Origin: Escherichia coli
GTDB taxonomy: Bacteria > Pseudomonadota > Gammaproteobacteria > Enterobacterales > Enterobacteriaceae
Assembly (NCBI RefSeq): GCF_048403405.1
Contig: NZ_CP183129.1
Strand: one strand, 5' to 3'
DNA: 64,000 bases
In this document: one piece after another, positions 3,256-39,241 of the stretch
Layout: every line of letters starts with the position of its first letter
Numbering within the stretch: the first letter of the stretch is position 1
Translations under genes and position numbers: made by a program
The notes under the pieces: model-generated
The model's database searches: none
What the model saw: only the letters and a program-made list of their open reading frames with translations
Told to the model about the DNA's origin: nothing

Positions 3256-4617
3256 ATGAAACTAAAGACCACATTGTTCGGCAATGTATATCAGTTTAAG
3301 GATGTAAAAGAGGTGCTGGCTAAAGCCAACGAACTGCGTTCGGGGGATGTGCTGGCGGGCGTTGCAGCGGCAAGCTCACAAGAGCGCGTGGCGGCAAAGC
3401 AGGTGTTGTCGGAAATGACCGTAGCGGACATCCGCAATAATCCGGTGATTGCCTATGAAGATGACTGCGTGACGCGGCTGATTCAGGACGACGTTAACGA
3501 AACGGCCTACAACCAGATTAAAAACTGGAGCATCAGCGAACTGCGTGAGTATGTCCTGAGCGATGAAACCAGCGTGGACGACATTGCCTTTACCCGCAAA
3601 GGGCTGACCTCGGAAGTGGTTGCGGCGGTAGCGAAGATTTGCTCCAACGCGGACCTGATCTACGGCGCGAAGAAAATGCCGGTAATCAAAAAGGCCAATA
3701 CCACCATCGGTATTCCGGGCACCTTCAGCGCCCGTTTGCAGCCAAATGACACCCGTGACGACGTGCAAAGTATCGCTGCGCAAATCTACGAAGGGCTTTC
3801 CTTCGGGGTGGGCGATGCGGTGATCGGCGTCAACCCGGTGACGGACGACGTGGAAAACTTAAGCCGCGTGCTGGACACCATCTACGGCGTGATCGACAAA
3901 TTCAACATTCCGACCCAGGGCTGCGTGCTGGCGCACGTCACCACCCAGATTGAAGCGATCCGTCGTGGCGCACCGGGCGGGCTGATTTTCCAGAGTATCT
4001 GCGGCAGCGAAAAAGGGCTGAAAGAGTTTGGCGTGGAGCTGGCGATGCTCGATGAAGCACGCGCAGTGGGCGCGGAGTTCAACCGTATCGCCGGGGAAAA
4101 CTGCCTCTACTTCGAAACCGGACAAGGTTCGGCGCTGTCCGCTGGCGCTAACTTCGGCGCTGACCAGGTGACGATGGAAGCGCGTAACTATGGGCTGGCG
4201 CGTCATTACGATCCGTTTATCGTCAACACCGTGGTCGGTTTTATTGGGCCGGAGTATCTCTACAACGACCGCCAGATTATCCGCGCGGGCTTAGAAGATC
4301 ACTTTATGGGCAAGCTGAGCGGCATCTCTATGGGCTGTGACTGCTGCTACACCAACCACGCTGACGCTGACCAGAACCTCAACGAAAACCTGATGATCCT
4401 GCTCGCCACCGCAGGCTGTAACTACATCATGGGGATGCCGCTGGGTGATGACATCATGCTCAACTACCAGACTACGGCCTTCCACGACACCGCCACTGTG
4501 CGTCAGTTACTCAACCTGCGCCCGTCACCGGAGTTTGAACGCTGGCTGGAAAGCATGGGCATTATGGCAAACGGTCGCCTGACCAAACGGGCGGGCGATC
4601 CGTCACTGTTCTTCTGA
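3256..4617 (+). CDS. eutB: EutB, ethanolamine ammonia-lyase large subunit
   Basis: 453-aa ORF starting 11 bp after the eutA stop. Confidence 0.92.
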   Translation: MKLKTTLFGNVYQFKDVKEVLAKANELRSGDVLAGVAAASSQERVAAKQVLSEMTVADIRNNPVIAYEDDCVTRLIQDDVNETAYNQIKNWSISELREYVLSDETSVDDIAFTRKGLTSEVVAAVAKICSNADLIYGAKKMPVIKKANTTIGIPGTFSARLQPNDTRDDVQSIAAQIYEGLSFGVGDAVIGVNPVTDDVENLSRVLDTIYGVIDKFNIPTQGCVLAHVTTQIEAIRRGAPGGLIFQSICGSEKGLKEFGVELAMLDEARAVGAEFNRIAGENCLYFETGQGSALSAGANFGADQVTMEARNYGLARHYDPFIVNTVVGFIGPEYLYNDRQIIRAGLEDHFMGKLSGISMGCDCCYTNHADADQNLNENLMILLATAGCNYIMGMPLGDDIMLNYQTTAFHDTATVRQLLNLRPSPEFERWLESMGIMANGRLTKRAGDPSLFF

Positions 4618-6200: not shown

Positions 6201-6707
6201 TTGCCGATGATCAATGCACTGGGATTGCTGGAAGTGGACGGCATGGTCGCCGCGCTAGATGCTGCGGATGCCATGCTCAAAGCAGCTAACGTTCGTCTGC
6301 TCAGTCACGAAGTGCTTGACCCTGGTCGCCTAACGCTGGTGGTGGAAGGCGATCTGGCGGCGTGTCGTGCGGCGCTGGACGCAGGTTGTGCTGCCGCGAT
6401 GCGTACCGGGCGTGTCATCAGCCGCAAGGAGATCGGTCGGCCAGACGATGACACCCAGTGGCTGGTTACTGGCTTTAACCGCCAGCCTAAGCAACCCGTA
6501 AAGGAACCCGACGCGCCAGTTATCGTCGCGGAATCTGCTGACGAGTTGTTGGCGCTGTTAACATCAGTACGTCAGGGAATGACGGCAGGAGAAGTGGCTG
6601 CCCACTTTGGCTGGCCGCTGGAAAAAGCCAGAAATGCGCTCGAACAGCTCTTTTCTGCCGGGACGTTACGTAAACGCAGTAGTCGTTATCGTCTCAAGCC
6701 CCATTAA
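6201..6707 (+). CDS. eutK: EutK, microcompartment shell protein with C-terminal extension
   Basis: 168-aa ORF, N-terminal BMC-like sequence MINALGLLEVDGMVAALDAADAMLKAANV. Confidence 0.88.
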   Translation: MPMINALGLLEVDGMVAALDAADAMLKAANVRLLSHEVLDPGRLTLVVEGDLAACRAALDAGCAAAMRTGRVISRKEIGRPDDDTQWLVTGFNRQPKQPVKEPDAPVIVAESADELLALLTSVRQGMTAGEVAAHFGWPLEKARNALEQLFSAGTLRKRSSRYRLKPH

Positions 6708-6752: not shown

Positions 6753-7805
6753 ATGAAAAAGACCCGTACAGCCAATTTGCACCATCTTTATCATGAACCC
6801 TTACCCGAAAACCTGAAGCTCACGCCGAAGGTCGAAGTGGATAATGTTCATCAACGACAGACAACGGATGTCTATGAACATGCTTTGACAATTACCGCCT
6901 GGCAGCAGATTTACGATCAGCTGCATCCGGGCAAGTTTCATGGTGAATTTACGGAAATTCTACTCGATGATATTCAGGTTTTTCGTGAATACACCGGTCT
7001 GGCGCTGCGTCAGTCGTGCCTGGTCTGGCCGAATTCGTTCTGGTTTGGCATTCCGGCGACGCGCGGTGAGCAGGGATTTATCGGTTCGCAATGTCTGGGA
7101 AGCGCAGAAATAGCGACGCGCCCTGGTGGAACCGAGTTTGAATTAAGTACGCCGGATGATTACACGATCCTTGGCGTAGTGCTTTCTGAAGATGTCATCA
7201 CCCGTCAGGCTAACTTTTTGCATAATCCGGATCGGGTATTACATATGCTGCGTAGCCAGTCGGCGCTGGAAGTGAAAGAGCAGCATAAAGCCGCGCTGTG
7301 GGGCTTTGTCCAACAGGCGCTGGCGACATTTTGCGAGAACCCGGAAAATCTTCATCAGCCTGCTGTGCGTAAAGTGCTGGGGGATAATTTGCTAATGGCG
7401 ATGGGGGCGATGCTGGAAGAAGCGCAGCCAATGGTGACGGCGGAAAGCATCAGTCATCAGAGTTACCGTCGGTTGCTTTCCCGCGCCCGTGAATATGTGC
7501 TGGAAAACATGTCTGAGCCGGTGACTGTGCTGGACTTGTGTAATCAACTGCATGTCAGCCGCCGCACGCTACAAAACGCGTTTCACGCTATTTTAGGCAT
7601 TGGCCCAAATGCGTGGCTGAAACGCATTCGCCTGAACGCCGTACGCCGCGAACTGATAAGCCCTTGGTCGCAAAGCACAACGGTAAAAGACGCCGCCATG
7701 CAGTGGGGATTCTGGCATCTGGGGCAATTTGCCACGGATTACCAGCAGCTGTTTGCCGAGAAGCCGTCGTTGACGCTGCATCAGCGGATGCGGGAATGGG
7801 GGTGA
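6753..7805 (+). CDS. eutR: EutR, AraC-family activator of the eut operon
   Basis: 350-aa ORF with C-terminal AraC-type HTH. Confidence 0.9.
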
Positions 7806-12468: not shown

Positions 12469-13893
<1,425 letters not shown>

Positions 13894-33896: not shown

Positions 33897-33982
33897 TGTT
33901 CAGTCCTCGTCACTGTACGAGGTAATATCGGCAGAAGAACAAGGAACTTGAGAAGAAAAATCAATCTTACAAACCGCATATA

Positions 33983-34009
33983 GCAAAAAAGCGCCTTTAG
34001 GGCGCTTTT
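33983..34009. terminator. Bidirectional hairpin terminator after the tRNA cluster
   Basis: aaaaaagcgcc ttta gggcgctttttt. Confidence 0.65.
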
Positions 34010-34013
34010 TTAC

Positions 34014-34089
34014 ATTGGTGGGTCGTGCAGGATTCGAACCTGCGACCAATTGATTAAAAGTCAACTGCTCTACCAACTGAGCTAACGAC
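34014..34089 (-). tRNA. lysV: tRNA-Lys (UUU)
   Basis: 76 nt, reverse complement GGGTCGTTAGCTCAG...ACTTTTAATCA...CCACCA. Confidence 0.95.
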
Positions 34090-34093
34090 CCGA

Positions 34094-34169
34094 AGTGGTG
34101 GGTGATGACGGGATCGAACCGCCGACCCCCTCCTTGTAAGGGAGGTGCTCTCCCAGCTGAGCTAATCAC
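34094..34169 (-). tRNA. valY: tRNA-Val (UAC)
   Basis: 76 nt, anticodon loop CCTTACAAGG, 3' CCA. Confidence 0.95.
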
Positions 34170-34215
34170 CCACTTCGGTACTTCACATTTTTACAAGAAA
34201 TTTAGCTGGCGAGAA

Positions 34216-34291
34216 AGTGGTGGGTGATGACGGGATCGAACCGCCGACCCCCTCCTTGTAAGGGAGGTGCTCTCCCAGCTGAGCTAATCAC
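34216..34291 (-). tRNA. valX: tRNA-Val (UAC)
   Basis: Identical 76-nt copy. Confidence 0.95.
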
Positions 34292-34335
34292 CCACTTCTC
34301 AATTTCTTGCTACACGGCGGAGACTACATAAAGTA

Positions 34336-34411
34336 GTTGGTGGGTGATGACGGGATCGAACCGCCGACCCCCTCCTTGTAAGGGAGGTGCTCTCCCAGCT
34401 GAGCTAATCAC
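34336..34411 (-). tRNA. valU: tRNA-Val (UAC)
   Basis: Identical 76-nt copy. Confidence 0.95.
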
Positions 34412-34671
34412 CCCCGCTGTGTGGAGTCGCATTATAGGGAGAGTTCAAAATGAGTCAACGCATTTTCTAAAGAAATTGTTCGTTCGTCGTAAATTTAAGC
34501 AAGATGATCGCAAAACAGACCGTGTTGCGCAATTTGTCAACGAAAACAATAATGCGTAAGGTTGCAACCCGAACTACATTGAGGAATCAGGCGGGAGTGA
34601 TAGAATATCGCCCACTCAATTTTTCCAGGATTTGCCGGTTGTCGGCATCTTTCTAAACGTAAGGCCATTTC

Positions 34672-36087
34672 ATGAAAATCAAAACTCGCTTCGCGCCAAG
34701 CCCAACAGGCTATCTGCACGTTGGCGGCGCGCGTACTGCTCTTTACTCCTGGCTTTTTGCACGTAACCACGGCGGTGAGTTCGTGCTGCGTATTGAAGAC
34801 ACCGATCTTGAGCGTTCCACGCCGGAAGCTATCGAAGCCATTATGGATGGCATGAACTGGCTGAGCCTGGAGTGGGATGAAGGTCCGTACTTCCAGACCA
34901 AACGTTTTGATCGCTACAACGCGGTGATCGATCAGATGCTGGAAGAGGGCACAGCTTATAAATGCTATTGCTCTAAAGAGCGCCTGGAAGCGCTGCGCGA
35001 AGAGCAAATGGCGAAAGGTGAGAAGCCGCGTTATGACGGTCGCTGCCGCCACAGCCATGAGCATCATGCTGATGATGAACCGTGTGTTGTACGTTTTGCT
35101 AACCCGCAGGAAGGTTCTGTTGTTTTTGACGATCAGATCCGTGGTCCGATCGAATTCAGCAACCAGGAGCTGGATGATCTGATTATCCGTCGTACCGATG
35201 GTTCTCCAACCTATAACTTCTGTGTGGTGGTTGACGACTGGGATATGGAAATCACCCACGTTATCCGTGGCGAAGACCATATCAACAACACGCCACGCCA
35301 GATCAACATTCTTAAAGCACTGAAAGCGCCGGTACCGGTTTACGCGCACGTTTCTATGATCAACGGCGATGACGGCAAAAAACTGTCCAAACGTCACGGG
35401 GCGGTCAGCGTAATGCAGTATCGTGATGACGGTTATTTGCCAGAAGCACTGCTGAACTATCTGGTGCGTCTGGGCTGGTCCCACGGCGATCAGGAAATCT
35501 TCACTCGTGAAGAGATGATCAAATACTTCACCCTGAATGCCGTCAGCAAATCTGCCAGTGCGTTCAACACCGACAAGCTGCTGTGGCTGAACCATCACTA
35601 CATTAACGCGCTGCCGCCGGAGTATGTTGCTACTCAATTACAGTGGCACATTGAGCAGGAAAATATCGATACCCGTAACGGCCCGCAGCTGGCTGATCTG
35701 GTGAAACTACTGGGTGAACGCTGCAAGACGCTGAAAGAGATGGCACAGAGCTGCCGCTATTTCTACGAAGATTTTGCTGAGTTCGATGCCGACGCCGCGA
35801 AAAAACATCTGCGTCCGGTAGCGCGTCAGCCGCTGGAAGTGGTTCGTGACAAACTGGCCGCGATTACTGACTGGACCGCTGAAAACGTTCATCACGCTAT
35901 TCAGGCGACGGCGGATGAGCTGGAAGTGGGGATGGGTAAAGTTGGTATGCCGCTGCGTGTCGCCGTAACCGGTGCGGGGCAGTCTCCGGCGCTGGATGTT
36001 ACCGTTCACGCAATCGGTAAGACCCGCAGTATCGAGCGTATCAACAAAGCGCTGGCTTTTATTGCTGAACGCGAAAATCAGCAGTAA
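34672..36087 (+). CDS. gltX: GltX, glutamyl-tRNA synthetase
   Basis: 471-aa ORF with HIGH-type motif (PTGYLHVGG) and KMSK-type motif (KLSKR). Confidence 0.95.
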
Positions 36088-36103
36088 TTAGCGCATAAAA
36101 GAT

Positions 36104-36136
36104 AAACGGCAGGAGAGATACCCCTGCCGTTTTTTA
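36104..36136 (+). terminator. Rho-independent terminator after gltX
   Basis: aacggcagg agagatac ccctgccgtt followed by tttttt. Confidence 0.7.
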
Positions 36137-36210
36137 TTTATCCGGTGCGCCGTAAAACCCCGTCCTTCAGGGCGGGGATATAAGGCGCGGTTTTCCACCT
36201 GACCAGGTGT

Positions 36211-36630
36211 TTGCTGTTGTTCAATGTATTGGCGGATGACGGATATTGGCGCACCTCCGCAGCTACTGGCAAAATAGCCAGGACTCCACAAAACGCCTTT
36301 GTAGTAATACCTGACGGCAATATCTGGTCGATCTCGTCGCAGTCACCTACCCGATACGCCTTTGAGGCTGTTTACCAGACTGGATATCGCCAGTTTGGGA
36401 GGATAGTTAATTAACAAATGGACGTGATCTGGTTCGCCATCCATTTCAACCAGTTCAGCTTCAAAATCAGCACATACCTTTGAAAAGTAAGTGCGTAGTT
36501 TTTCTGTCGCGTCATGGTCAAAAATCTGGCGTCGGTATCTGGTGACAAAGACCAGGTGAACATGCATCAGGAAAACACAATGCCTTCCACGCCGGATATC
36601 GGTTTCTTTTTTCACAGACCAAAGTATCAT
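36211..36630 (-). pseudogene. tnpA: tnpA (IS200/IS605 Y1 HuH transposase) interrupted by an in-frame TGA at 36343-36345
   Basis: N-terminal ORF 36343..36630 carries HuH (PDHVHLLI); the same frame continues after the stop through RLRRDRPDIAVRYYYKGVLWSPGYFASSCGGAPISVIRQYIEQQ (ORF 36088..36291). Confidence 0.7.
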
Positions 36631-36637
36631 TTGGCCT

Positions 36638-37846
36638 GTGAAACGACTACAGGCATTTAAATTCCAGTTAAGACCCGGTGGTCAACAGGAGCGTGAAATG
36701 AGGCGCTTCGCAGGCGCATGTCGTTTCGTTTTCAATCGTGCTCTGGCGCTTCAGAATGAGAATCATGAGGCCGGTAATAAATACATCCCTTACGGGAAAA
36801 TGGCTTCCTGGCTGGTTGAGTGGAAAAACGCCACTGAAACGCAATGGCTTAAAGATTCGCCCTCACAGCCATTGCAACAGTCACTGAAAGACCTTGAGCG
36901 GGCTTACAAAAACTTCTTCCGGAAGCGGGCTGCTTTTCCCCGATTCAAAAAGCGGGGACAGAATGATGCATTCCGCTACCCGCAGGGCGTTAAGCTCGAT
37001 CAGGAAAACAGCCGTATTTTTCTGCCGAAACTTGGCTGGATGCGCTACCGGAATAGCCGTCAGGTCACGGGTGTTGTGAAAAATGTCACTGTCTGCCAGT
37101 CCTGCGGTAAGTGGTACATCAGTATTCAGACAGAAAGTGAAGTATCAACTCCGGTTCACCCTTCAGCATCAATGGTCGGGCTGGATGCTGGCGTGGCTAA
37201 ACTCGCCACGCTGTCAGATGGCACAGTCTTTGAGCCTGTAAACAGTTTTCAGAAAAACCAGAAGAAGCTGGCGAGACTTCAGCGACAGTTAAGCCGCAAG
37301 GTCAAATTCAGCAACAACTGGCAGAAGCAGAAACGCAAAATACAGCGACTGCATTCCTGTATCGCAAATATCCGCAGGGACTACCTTCATAAAGTCACAA
37401 CGACCGTCAGCAAAAACCACGCAATGATAGTCATTGAGGATTTGAAGGTCAGTAACATGTCAAAGTCAGCAGCGGGTACGGTCAGCCAGCCGCGGCGCAA
37501 TGTCCGGGCAAAATCAGGTTTAAACCGTTCGATACTGGATCAGGGCAGGTATGAAATGCGCCGCCAGCTTGAGTACAAGCAGCTCTGGCGTGGCGGTCAG
37601 GTGCTTGCTGTTCCGCCAGCGTACACAAGCCAGCGTTGCGCGTGCTGTGGTCATACAGCGAAAGAAAATCGCCTGTCACAAAGTCAATTCAGATGCCAGG
37701 TATGTGGATATACAGCGAACGCCGATGTAAACGGCGCTCGTAACATTTTAGCGGCGGGGCACGCCGTTCTTGCCTGTGGAGAGATGGTGCAGTCAGGCCG
37801 CCCGTTGAAGCAGGAACCCACCGAAATGATTCAGGCGACAGCCTGA
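36638..37846 (+). CDS. tnpB: TnpB (IS605 OrfB-type RuvC-like nuclease), 402 aa, GTG start
   Basis: N-terminal KFQLRP...FNRAL; RuvC-I GLDAGV, RuvC-II VIEDLK, CxxC...CxxC zinc finger (CACCGH...CQVCGY), Ruv[13 protein letters not shown]. Confidence 0.85.
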
Positions 37847-37901
37847 ACGTAGCAGGGATCCTCGTCATTCAGGGCGTGGAGGATGTCAAGCTGATTCATC
37901 T
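37700..37901 (+). ncRNA. Predicted TnpB-associated right-end guide RNA (omega RNA) region; extent not determined
   Basis: Inferred from the known organisation of IS200/IS605 elements (RNA overlaps the tnpB 3' end and right end, guide read from flank); no sequence-level proof here. Confidence 0.3.
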
Positions 37902-38170
37902 ATGTCGAGACGAGCAAGGAAATTACGAATTCCTTCGCGTGACAAAAATTGCGCAACTTTTTCCTGCTCACTGTGAGTCATGTTGTCTATTGCGCTGATG
38001 ATTTGCCGATAAGCAGGAGTGCGAATCCCCGGTGCGTATTCGGCAAGGGGTTCTTCGGCTTCCAGAAGCATCGGCGTGTTATGGAAGGCTGGCGTGTTCT
38101 GAATAAACTCGCAAACTTGCGTATCGACCAGAATAAGTCTGGCACGACCGCCTTTCACGCCAGGAAATTT
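37886..38170 (-). pseudogene. yfeD: yfeD 3' segment (codons 37-130) of an HTH-type DNA-binding protein split by the IS110-family insertion
   Basis: ORF 37886..38158 plus in-frame upstream codons KFPG; paralogous to yfeC. Confidence 0.8.
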
Positions 38171-38236
38171 AATGAGATGGTCACTCCCTCCTTCCCGGTA
38201 CTATGCTGAGGACAGGCTTTCATTCGGAGAACTATC

Positions 38237-39241
38237 ATGGAAAACATTGCGCTCATTGGTATCGATCTGGGTAAAAACTCTTTCCATATTCATTGCCAGG
38301 ATCGTCGCGGGAAGGCTGTTTACCGTAAAAAATTTACCCGGCCAAAGTTGATCGAATTTTTGGCGACATGCCCCGCTACAACCATCGCAATGGAAGCCTG
38401 TGGCGGTTCTCACTTTATGGCACGCAAGTTGGAAGAGTTGGGGCATTCCCCAAAGCTGATATCACCACAATTTGTCCGCCCGTTCGTTAAAAGCAATAAA
38501 AACGACTTTGTCGACGCCGAAGCTATTTGTGAAGCTGCATCGCGTCCGTCTATGCGTTTTGTGCAGCCCAGAACGGAATCTCAGCAGGCAATGCGGGCTC
38601 TGCATCGTGTCCGTGAATCCCTGGTTCAGGATAAGGTAAAAACAACCAATCAAATGCATGCTTTTCTGCTGGAATTTGGCATTAGCGTTCCCCGAGGAGC
38701 TGCCGTTATTAGCCGACTGAGTACCATTCTTGAGGATAATAGTTTGCCTCTTTACCTCAGCCAGTTATTGCTGAAATTACAACAGCATTATCACTATCTT
38801 GTTGAGCAGATTAAAGATTTGGAATCCCAGTTGAAACGAAAGTTGGACGAAGATGAGGTTGGACAGCGCTTGCTGAGCATTCCCTGCGTCGGAACACTGA
38901 CAGCGAGTACTATTTCAACTGAGATTGGCGACGGGAAGCAGTACGCCAGCAGCCGTGACTTTGCGGCGGCAACAGGGCTTGTACCTCGGCAGTACAGCAC
39001 GGGAGGTAGGACGACATTGCTGGGAATTAGTAAGCGAGGTAATAAAAAGATCCGAACTTTGTTGGTTCAATGTGCCAGGGTATTCATACAAAAACTGGAA
39101 CACCAGTCTGGCAAATTGGCCGATTGGGTCAGGGATTTACTGTGCCGGAAAAGCAACTTTGTCGTCACTTGTGCTCTGGCAAACAAGCTGGCCAGAATAG
39201 CCTGGGCCCTAACGGCACGACAGCAAACTTATGTAGCATAA
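38237..39241 (+). CDS. IS110-family DEDD transposase/recombinase, 334 aa
   Basis: N-terminal RuvC-like motifs (IGIDLGK, MEACG, DFVDAEA) and C-terminal domain with conserved Ser (VPRQYSTGG). Confidence 0.85.
   Translation: MENIALIGIDLGKNSFHIHCQDRRGKAVYRKKFTRPKLIEFLATCPATTIAMEACGGSHFMARKLEELGHSPKLISPQFVRPFVKSNKNDFVDAEAICEAASRPSMRFVQPRTESQQAMRALHRVRESLVQDKVKTTNQMHAFLLEFGISVPRGAAVISRLSTILEDNSLPLYLSQLLLKLQQHYHYLVEQIKDLESQLKRKLDEDEVGQRLLSIPCVGTLTASTISTEIGDGKQYASSRDFAAATGLVPRQYSTGGRTTLLGISKRGNKKIRTLLVQCARVFIQKLEHQSGKLADWVRDLLCRKSNFVVTCALANKLARIAWALTARQQTYVA

Follow-up and report, generated by a model that had tools for sequence, protein, structure and literature searches.

The IS609 copy between gltX and yfeD

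Positions 36142-37889 of the window (the whole 64,000-nucleotide stretch of E. coli DNA analyzed here) hold an ordinary E. coli copy of IS609, a member of the IS200/IS605 family. Its identity to 20 other E. coli copies is 97.7-100% over the full length (7 loci, 1,748 bp), and PGAP labels the element as 'IS200/IS605-like element IS609' family transposase. A megablast search with 36100-37900 matched 5,359 of 5,426 complete E. coli genomes, at 12,629 places. The features at the insertion site are as follows.

34672-36087: gltX ORF
36104-36135, plus strand (reported on the minus strand by the scan): gltX intrinsic terminator, hairpin AAACGGCAGG...CCTGCCGTTT and T-run
36138-36141, plus strand: TTAT target tetranucleotide abutting the left end and presumed TAM of TnpB, from the comparison of copies and the empty site
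36142-37889, no strand assigned: IS609 element, 1,748 bp, from full-length nucleotide identity and the PGAP name

The boundaries were set by copies at other sites together with the empty gltX-yfeD site of ATCC 25922, in which ...CCGTTTTTTATTTAT is joined directly to GCTGATTCATC... and IS609 is absent. At the junction the empty site runs from ...TTTAT into GCTGATTC..., whereas the occupied site runs from ...TTTAT into CCGGTGCG... at the left end and from ...GATGTCAA into GCTGATTC at the right end. IS609 is inserted directly 3′ of TTAT, without target duplication and without terminal inverted repeats. The tetranucleotide precedes the left end at three different sites and is single and unduplicated in the empty site; we presume it to be the TAM of IS609 TnpB. 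The hairpin proper of the gltX terminator lies at 36104-36132, and the element is inserted in its T-rich tail. Of the 5,426 complete genomes, 535 have IS609 in the gltX-yfeD site, and at least 1,645 have that site empty between the same flanks.

Upstream of gltX, at 33900-34430, is a tandem tRNA cluster, annotated as three tRNA-Val and one tRNA-Lys in the matching part of TUM14771, and its repeat units of about 120 bp give spurious repeated ORFs on both strands. The yfeD gene is split by a 1,326-bp IS4321 of the IS110 family (38171-39496), with an ORF at 38237-39241 for a 334-residue RNA-guided-type transposase; IS621 was considered as the IS110-family element in yfeD and was ruled out. In TUM14771, where yfeD is uninterrupted, GCCAGGAAATTT is joined to TTCCGTTTTCCAGCC. 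The complement of the IS4321 target contains GAAAACGGAAAA, which we take to be the core of the Tn21-family inverted repeat, the normal target of IS4321/IS5075; if so, the site in yfeD is a chromosomal look-alike of that repeat.

The tnpA reading frame is split by a stop codon

The tnpA gene lies on the minus strand in the left part of the element and carries the following features.

36202-36630, minus strand: tnpA pseudogene, codons 1-143 of a Y1 HUH transposase, from NF033573 and PDB TnpA matches
36418-36426, minus strand: HUH motif H69-V70-H71, upstream of the stop, with invariant columns aligned to the HUH of solved TnpA
36343-36345, minus strand: nonsense codon 96, TGA in place of the TTA for a Leu that is otherwise invariant
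36226-36228, minus strand: catalytic Tyr135 codon (TAC), downstream of the stop, the invariant Y135 in RQYIEQQ
36199-36201, minus strand: codon 144 CAG, native stop lost (TAG in orthologues and intact IS609 copies)
36088-36198, minus strand: continuation of the tnpA frame across the left end and gltX terminator, ending at TAA 36088-36090

The original prediction held that the ORF with the HUH motif ends at a TGA and that the same frame then continues without a shift through the catalytic tyrosine region, and both statements were confirmed. The plus-strand tca at 36343-36345 is TGA on the minus strand, and the ORF at 36343-36630 has 95 codons with the HUH inside and ends ...DHVHLLINYPPKLAISSLVNSLKGVSGR. 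Past the TGA the frame is open for 85 codons via ...LWSPGYFASSCGGAPISVIRQY135IEQQ..., so that Tyr135 lies downstream of the stop, and the translation of 36088-36630 (...GVSGR, stop, LRRDRPDIAVRYYYKGVLWSPGYFASSCGGAPISVIRQYIEQQQTPGQVENRALYPRPEGRGFTAHRINKKRQGYLSCRLSFMR, stop) contains one internal stop and no frameshift. The string RLRRDRP, as quoted in the prediction, skips the stop; the actual order is ...GVSGR-stop-LRRDRPDI....

With Leu placed at codon 96, tnpA matches NCBIfam NF033573 (transpos_IS200) unbroken over residues 13-138 (E 6e-43), and it also matches the solved TnpA structures 2F4F, 2EC2, 2A6M and 2XM3. Because these matches are unbroken, the two halves are one gene split by a nonsense codon and not a chance pair of ORFs. 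Y135 of RQYIEQQ aligns with KKYIEEQ in 2F4F and 2EC2, and we take it to be the catalytic tyrosine from established knowledge of IS608 TnpA. Both motifs are present, but the split at TGA96 and the loss of the native stop mean that an intact Y1 HUH TnpA is not encoded here. RefSeq/PGAP already annotates the gene as a pseudogene ('internal stop; incomplete; missing C-terminus').

Position 96 is Leu in 13 of 13 aligned homologues. The close orthologues, from Salmonella, Proteus, Photorhabdus, Klebsiella, Morganella and Yersinia, are 138-146 residues long and 81-85% identical to the window sequence, and all have Leu in ...SRLLRRDRPDI..., indicating that the ancestral codon was TTA and that TGA arose by a single T-to-G change. 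An Rfam search of 35900-39600 at E<=1 matched no SECIS-like family, RAGATH-18 being the only match. In folding energy, the 69 nt that surround and follow the UGA do not stand out from shuffled sequence (z -0.87).

The gene had been described as knocked out by one nonsense codon. TGA96 is real, but it is not the sole lesion, as the native TAG at codon 144 has also been lost to CAG. Orthologue C-termini read ...YIEQQQTP(G/S/D), and tnpA of a Salmonella relative, whose contig stops before tnpB and supplies the tnpA 3′ end and the left end only, finishes ...caaacaccaggtTAG, that is, ...ccaggtTAG where the window has CAG. As a result of this stop loss the ORF runs via the left end into the gltX terminator, and the part of the tail beyond the element boundary (past ...AHRI) is site-specific and differs at each insertion site. 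Compared with each of the TnpA proteins WP_000604942.1 and WP_000604912.1, the window sequence has two conservative substitutions in addition to L96stop and stop144Q.

The two genes diverge, with tnpA starting at an ATG (36630, minus strand) and tnpB at a GTG (36638, plus strand) 7 bp away, so the promoter of each gene must lie within the other gene; a consensus scan found no sigma-70-like site near the start of either.

tnpB and the ends of the element

The remaining features belong to tnpB, to the two ends and to the right flank.

36638-37846, plus strand: tnpB, insQ-type RNA-guided endonuclease, 402 codons, intact, from NF040570 and ISDra2 TnpB structures
36147-36188, plus strand: left-end subterminal hairpin, 8-bp G+C-rich core stem CCCCGTCC/GGGCGGGG
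37847-37889, plus strand: right end, terminating ...GGAGGATGTCAA, a boundary common to copies at three sites
37890-37905, plus strand: flank GCTGATTCATCTATGT, predicted guide of the IS609 omega-RNA under the TnpB homing model

The tnpB product matches NF040570 (guided_TnpB) over its full length (380.8 bits, residues 7-372) and the ISDra2 TnpB structures 8H1J and 8BF8 (E 7.5e-53). It has the RuvC triad D183 (37184-37186), E267 (37436-37438) and D363 (37724-37726), and a Zn-finger with CxxC at 334-337 and 353-356. We found no functional study of IS609 TnpB (insQ) in the literature searched.

Folded as DNA, the left-end hairpin has an energy of -14.7 kcal/mol (z -2.5), and a right-end hairpin was not recovered by the MFE fold (z -0.1). 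The omega-RNA scaffold would be expected to extend with its 3′ part into the right end. A sub-threshold Rfam match to RAGATH-18 at 37773-37816 on the plus strand (25.4 bits against a gathering score of 44.9, E 0.12) falls at the 3′ end of tnpB, where the scaffold is expected, and may be due to chance. The flank GCTGATTCATCTATGT stands directly after TTAT in the empty site, and an omega-RNA transcribed across the right end would carry 37890-37905 as its guide. At both ends the window copy matches L019, a copy whose tnpA is intact, at every base but the codon-144 base at 36201.

Relationship to K-12 IS609 and other characterized elements

The IS609 of E. coli K-12 (tnpA pseudogene yncK/insP with insQ/ydcM, between ydcL and ydcO) is the same element, 98.2% identical over 1,748 bp, and like the window copy it has TGA96, CAG144 and an intact 402-codon tnpB. 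It contains exactly one internal tnpA stop, TGA96. The K-12 copy differs in its insertion site, the window copy being in gltX-yfeD, and at about 32 nucleotides, and among its own changes are V27L, V106F and a G-to-A in the left-end hairpin. Umenhoffer et al. state that K-12 IS609 is inactive owing to a stop codon ('data not shown' there; PMC2891674), and in the mutation-accumulation lines of Lee et al. (2016; PMC5009759) 0 of 758 new IS insertions were of IS609.

Intact copies exist in E. coli IAI1 at yjfZ-ytfB (WP_000604912.1) and in strain C7 at yeaR-yeaQ (WP_000604942.1). They share with the window copy the ends, tnpB and the divergent arrangement of tnpA and tnpB; unlike it, they have TTA96 and TAG144 and encode a complete 143-residue TnpA. 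These copies are potentially autonomous and potential sources of TnpA in trans.

IS608 of Helicobacter pylori and ISDra2 of Deinococcus radiodurans, which serve as the mechanistic models for IS200/IS605 elements, share the Y1 HUH TnpA fold (2A6M and 2XM3; E 1e-17 to 1e-19), and the TnpB of ISDra2 is homologous to that of the window (8H1J, 8BF8). IS608 inserts at TTAC and ISDra2 at TTGAT. As with these elements, IS609 in the window is inserted 3′ of a short specific sequence without duplication and has a subterminal hairpin, at its left end. However, both are only distant sequence relatives, the target in the window is TTAT, and the tnpA in the window is dead. In functional state the window copy resembles the IS1341-type and Geobacillus stearothermophilus elements described by Meers et al., which have ends and tnpB/omega-RNA and depend on TnpA in trans. 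It differs from tnpB-only elements in that tnpA is still present at nearly full length and was disabled by point mutations, not deletion. The same authors report that most tnpB genes have no tnpA nearby, that autonomous elements appear prone to degradation, and that TnpB and its omega-RNA restore the element by cutting the donor joint once it is empty (Meers et al., bioRxiv 10.1101/2023.03.14.532601).

The stop allele is common in E. coli

Alleles were counted in the 5,426 complete E. coli genomes with 55-mers centered on the variable base, where a mismatch destroys every 28-base seed. Of these genomes, 2,728 carry the TGA96 allele, at 3,376 places, and 3,895 carry the TTA (Leu96) allele, at 6,358 places (65% of E. 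coli copies); together the two alleles about account for the 9,740 copies that hold the codon-96 segment. TGA96 occurs at four or more sites, namely gltX-yfeD (the window and TUM14771), ydcL-ydcO (K-12), yeaR-yeaQ and ybcM-yedK. K-12 ER2796 is an exact match to the allele; O157:H7 also has a copy at the gltX-yfeD site, with TTA96. The original prediction named as its refutation that other copies show the same stop as a conserved feature. Thousands do share the stop, but it is not a conserved functional feature, since the orthologues and 65% of the copies have Leu and other copies are broken in different ways.

Codon 144 is CAG at 6,902 places (about 80% of copies) and TAG at 1,776. The tail that runs into the gltX terminator is present as had been described, but it is not atypical; with CAG144 so widespread, a long tail is a general feature of IS609 and not peculiar to the window copy. 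An impression gained from five copies, that all E. coli copies are without the native stop, was rejected, as 1,776 copies keep TAG and two of the sampled copies are fully intact.

Frameshift alleles are also frequent. The -5 allele was found in about 672 genomes and the -4 allele in about 61. For the deletion alleles, gapped alignments of the 55-mers also caught undeleted copies and only the band of >=99% identity was usable, and for this reason the count of the -1 allele is a range, 627-1,204 genomes. Of the approximately 9,700 tnpA copies in the 5,426 genomes, at least about half are disabled by one of the four lesions identified.

Decay of tnpA and retention of tnpB

A sample of 21 copies at seven loci was compared. 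It was partly chosen by allele, and its proportions are not population frequencies. The state of tnpA in these copies was as follows.

TGA96: 8 of 21 copies
-1 frameshift at 36589: 4 of 21 copies, two loci
-5 frameshift at 36515: 2 of 21 copies
-4 frameshift at 36418, inside the HUH: 1 of 21 copies
H71N in the HUH motif: 1 of 21 copies
stop loss only: 3 of 21 copies
fully intact: 2 of 21 copies

The tnpA gene is disabled in 16 of the 21, by TGA96, one of three different frameshifts or the HUH substitution, and tnpB is a 402-codon ORF in all 21. Counted as independent disabling events, there are five in the 429-bp tnpA and none in the 1,209-bp tnpB (P ~0.001 if events are spread by length). Mean pairwise pN/pS among the sampled copies is 0.45 for tnpA and 0.27 for tnpB. 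The tnpA value is below 1, and decay at the level of substitutions is not yet obvious in this small sample, which includes intact copies.

The opposite decay was seen in E. coli JJ1887 (ybcM-yedK region), where tnpA is annotated as intact with 174 residues and tnpB is a truncated fragment. This tnpA has TTA96 and an ORF that runs out into the flank; 664 bp of the element are left, at 95.8% identity.

Probable recombination between copies at different loci

Among IS609 copies of the seven loci, the four-gamete test fails for 805 of 2,926 informative site pairs, and site 36344, within codon 96, is incompatible with 38 other sites. Copies at different loci have haplotype blocks in common, and IS609 copies are mosaics. 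In one ydcL-ydcO copy (L018) the left third carries the -1 frameshift haplotype block at about 36580-36615, as found in agl-yidH copies, and the right third matches other ydcL-ydcO copies. Given mosaic copies and shared blocks, recombination, comprising ectopic gene conversion and ordinary exchange between strains, is the simplest explanation. Two distinct tnpA lesions each cross loci, TGA96 at four and the -1 frameshift at 36589 at two. That lesions are common to several loci points to ectopic gene conversion, trans-mobilization of dead copies, or both. Mobilization of dead copies by intact ones may be possible because the ends of the window copy are identical to those of an intact copy. Recurrent independent T-to-G changes at four loci were considered and found unlikely, given the pervasive four-gamete failures and the shared haplotype blocks.

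The window copy is 98.7-98.9% identical to the yeaR-yeaQ and tsx-nrdR copies and 98.1% identical to the O157:H7 copy at the same TTAT site in gltX-yfeD, from which it has 33 differences. Either IS609 inserted at this site twice, independently, or the divergence from the O157:H7 copy is due to conversion that followed insertion.

Discussion

We conclude that the window very probably holds a non-autonomous IS609 with the K-12-type tnpA null allele and a stop loss, in which tnpB has been kept by selection and the TGA is an old allele spread by recombination. The claim that the transposase is knocked out and the nuclease kept, leaving a non-autonomous copy, is supported by the identity of the allele with that of K-12, by the pseudogene annotation of PGAP and by the intact 402-codon tnpB. 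The state of tnpA is a known kind of decay, and the prediction was a correct reading of an already known state.

On this reading, the change of TTA (Leu96) to TGA would end translation after 95 residues, keeping the HUH motif and losing the last third of the fold together with Tyr135, and the change of TAG (stop 144) to CAG would remove the native stop. With both lesions the copy should be unable to make transposase, which would leave it non-autonomous. Because its ends are the same as in copies whose tnpA is intact, TnpA provided in trans could in principle still excise and move it. We infer that tnpB, and presumably also the omega-RNA, is functional and under purifying selection, and under the published model TnpB would hold the element at its site by cutting the empty joint of TTAT and flank. 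TGA96 itself appears to be an old and common null allele, which the K-12 copy shares and which about one third of E. coli IS609 copies carry, at several loci. Its spread is most likely due to recombination or ectopic gene conversion among copies, and possibly also to trans-mobilization. A trace of full-length TnpA with Trp96 and an abnormal 37-residue tail could conceivably still be made.

A different account of the same alleles, which we regard as very unlikely, is that the tnpA nulls (TGA96, the frameshifts and the stop loss) are favored as 'self-taming' and copied between loci by conversion, with TnpB and the omega-RNA under selection and a trickle of readthrough at the UGA-C possible. If this were true, silencing of TnpA would stop the loss of the element by excision, and E. 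coli IS609 would be a natural case of a TnpB element that has survived as long as the species itself on next to no transposase.

We consider it very unlikely that the TGA is a throttle on transposition and not a knock-out, with leaky or programmed readthrough of a UGA-C that is occasionally read as Trp. Such a throttle would account for the survival of the TGA at several loci and in thousands of genomes. In its favor, the nucleotide after the UGA is C, which makes for weak termination in E. coli; the frame beyond the stop is open and free of frameshifts in all eight sampled TGA copies; and copies with the TGA are found at four or more loci. Bacterial readthrough is reported at 1e-3 to 1e-2, and up to about 10% under stress (PMC10057733). 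However, the stop is not conserved, since every orthologue has Leu, as do 65% of E. coli copies, and no stimulatory structure follows the UGA (fold z -0.87, no Rfam match). The K-12 copy, which has the TGA allele, shows no transposition, and TGA copies are substituted at otherwise invariant or near-invariant positions (M22K, D55Y and P117A). That other copies are broken by frameshifts argues that there is no need to keep tnpA working, and the spread of the TGA over several loci is explained by the pervasive recombination.

Separate use of the two halves, with the 95-residue HUH fragment or a restart product acting as a regulator or dominant-negative partner of TnpA, seems to us extremely unlikely. 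IS608 TnpA works as a dimer in which each active site pairs the HUH of one subunit with the Tyr of the other. Both pieces are ORFs, a restart candidate exists at the TTG at 36291, whose product would carry Tyr135, and the TGA allele is common. Against this, the break lies inside a single compact domain that aligns end-to-end with TnpA structures, so neither piece is likely to fold. We saw no evidence of selection on the pieces, which carry radical substitutions, and a split-piece role of this kind is not reported in the literature drawn on. Finally, a sequencing or assembly error at 36343-36345, or decoding of the UGA as selenocysteine through a SECIS-like structure, has in its favor the bare presence of an in-frame TGA and nothing more, and can be given practically no weight: 2,728 independently finished genomes contain the exact allele (3,376 places in all), the complete TUM14771 genome matches the region at 100% identity, no SECIS-like family match in Rfam and no significant hairpin after the UGA were found, and the homologous residue is Leu, not Cys, in 13 of 13 homologues.

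The stop in tnpA is itself of small weight, having been reported for K-12 since at least 2010 and being annotated as a pseudogene in RefSeq. The population picture around the non-autonomous copy clearly illustrates, in nature, the published view that elements with TnpB outlast their transposase, and IS609 is a convenient E. coli system in which to ask what keeps tnpB selected when TnpA is gone.
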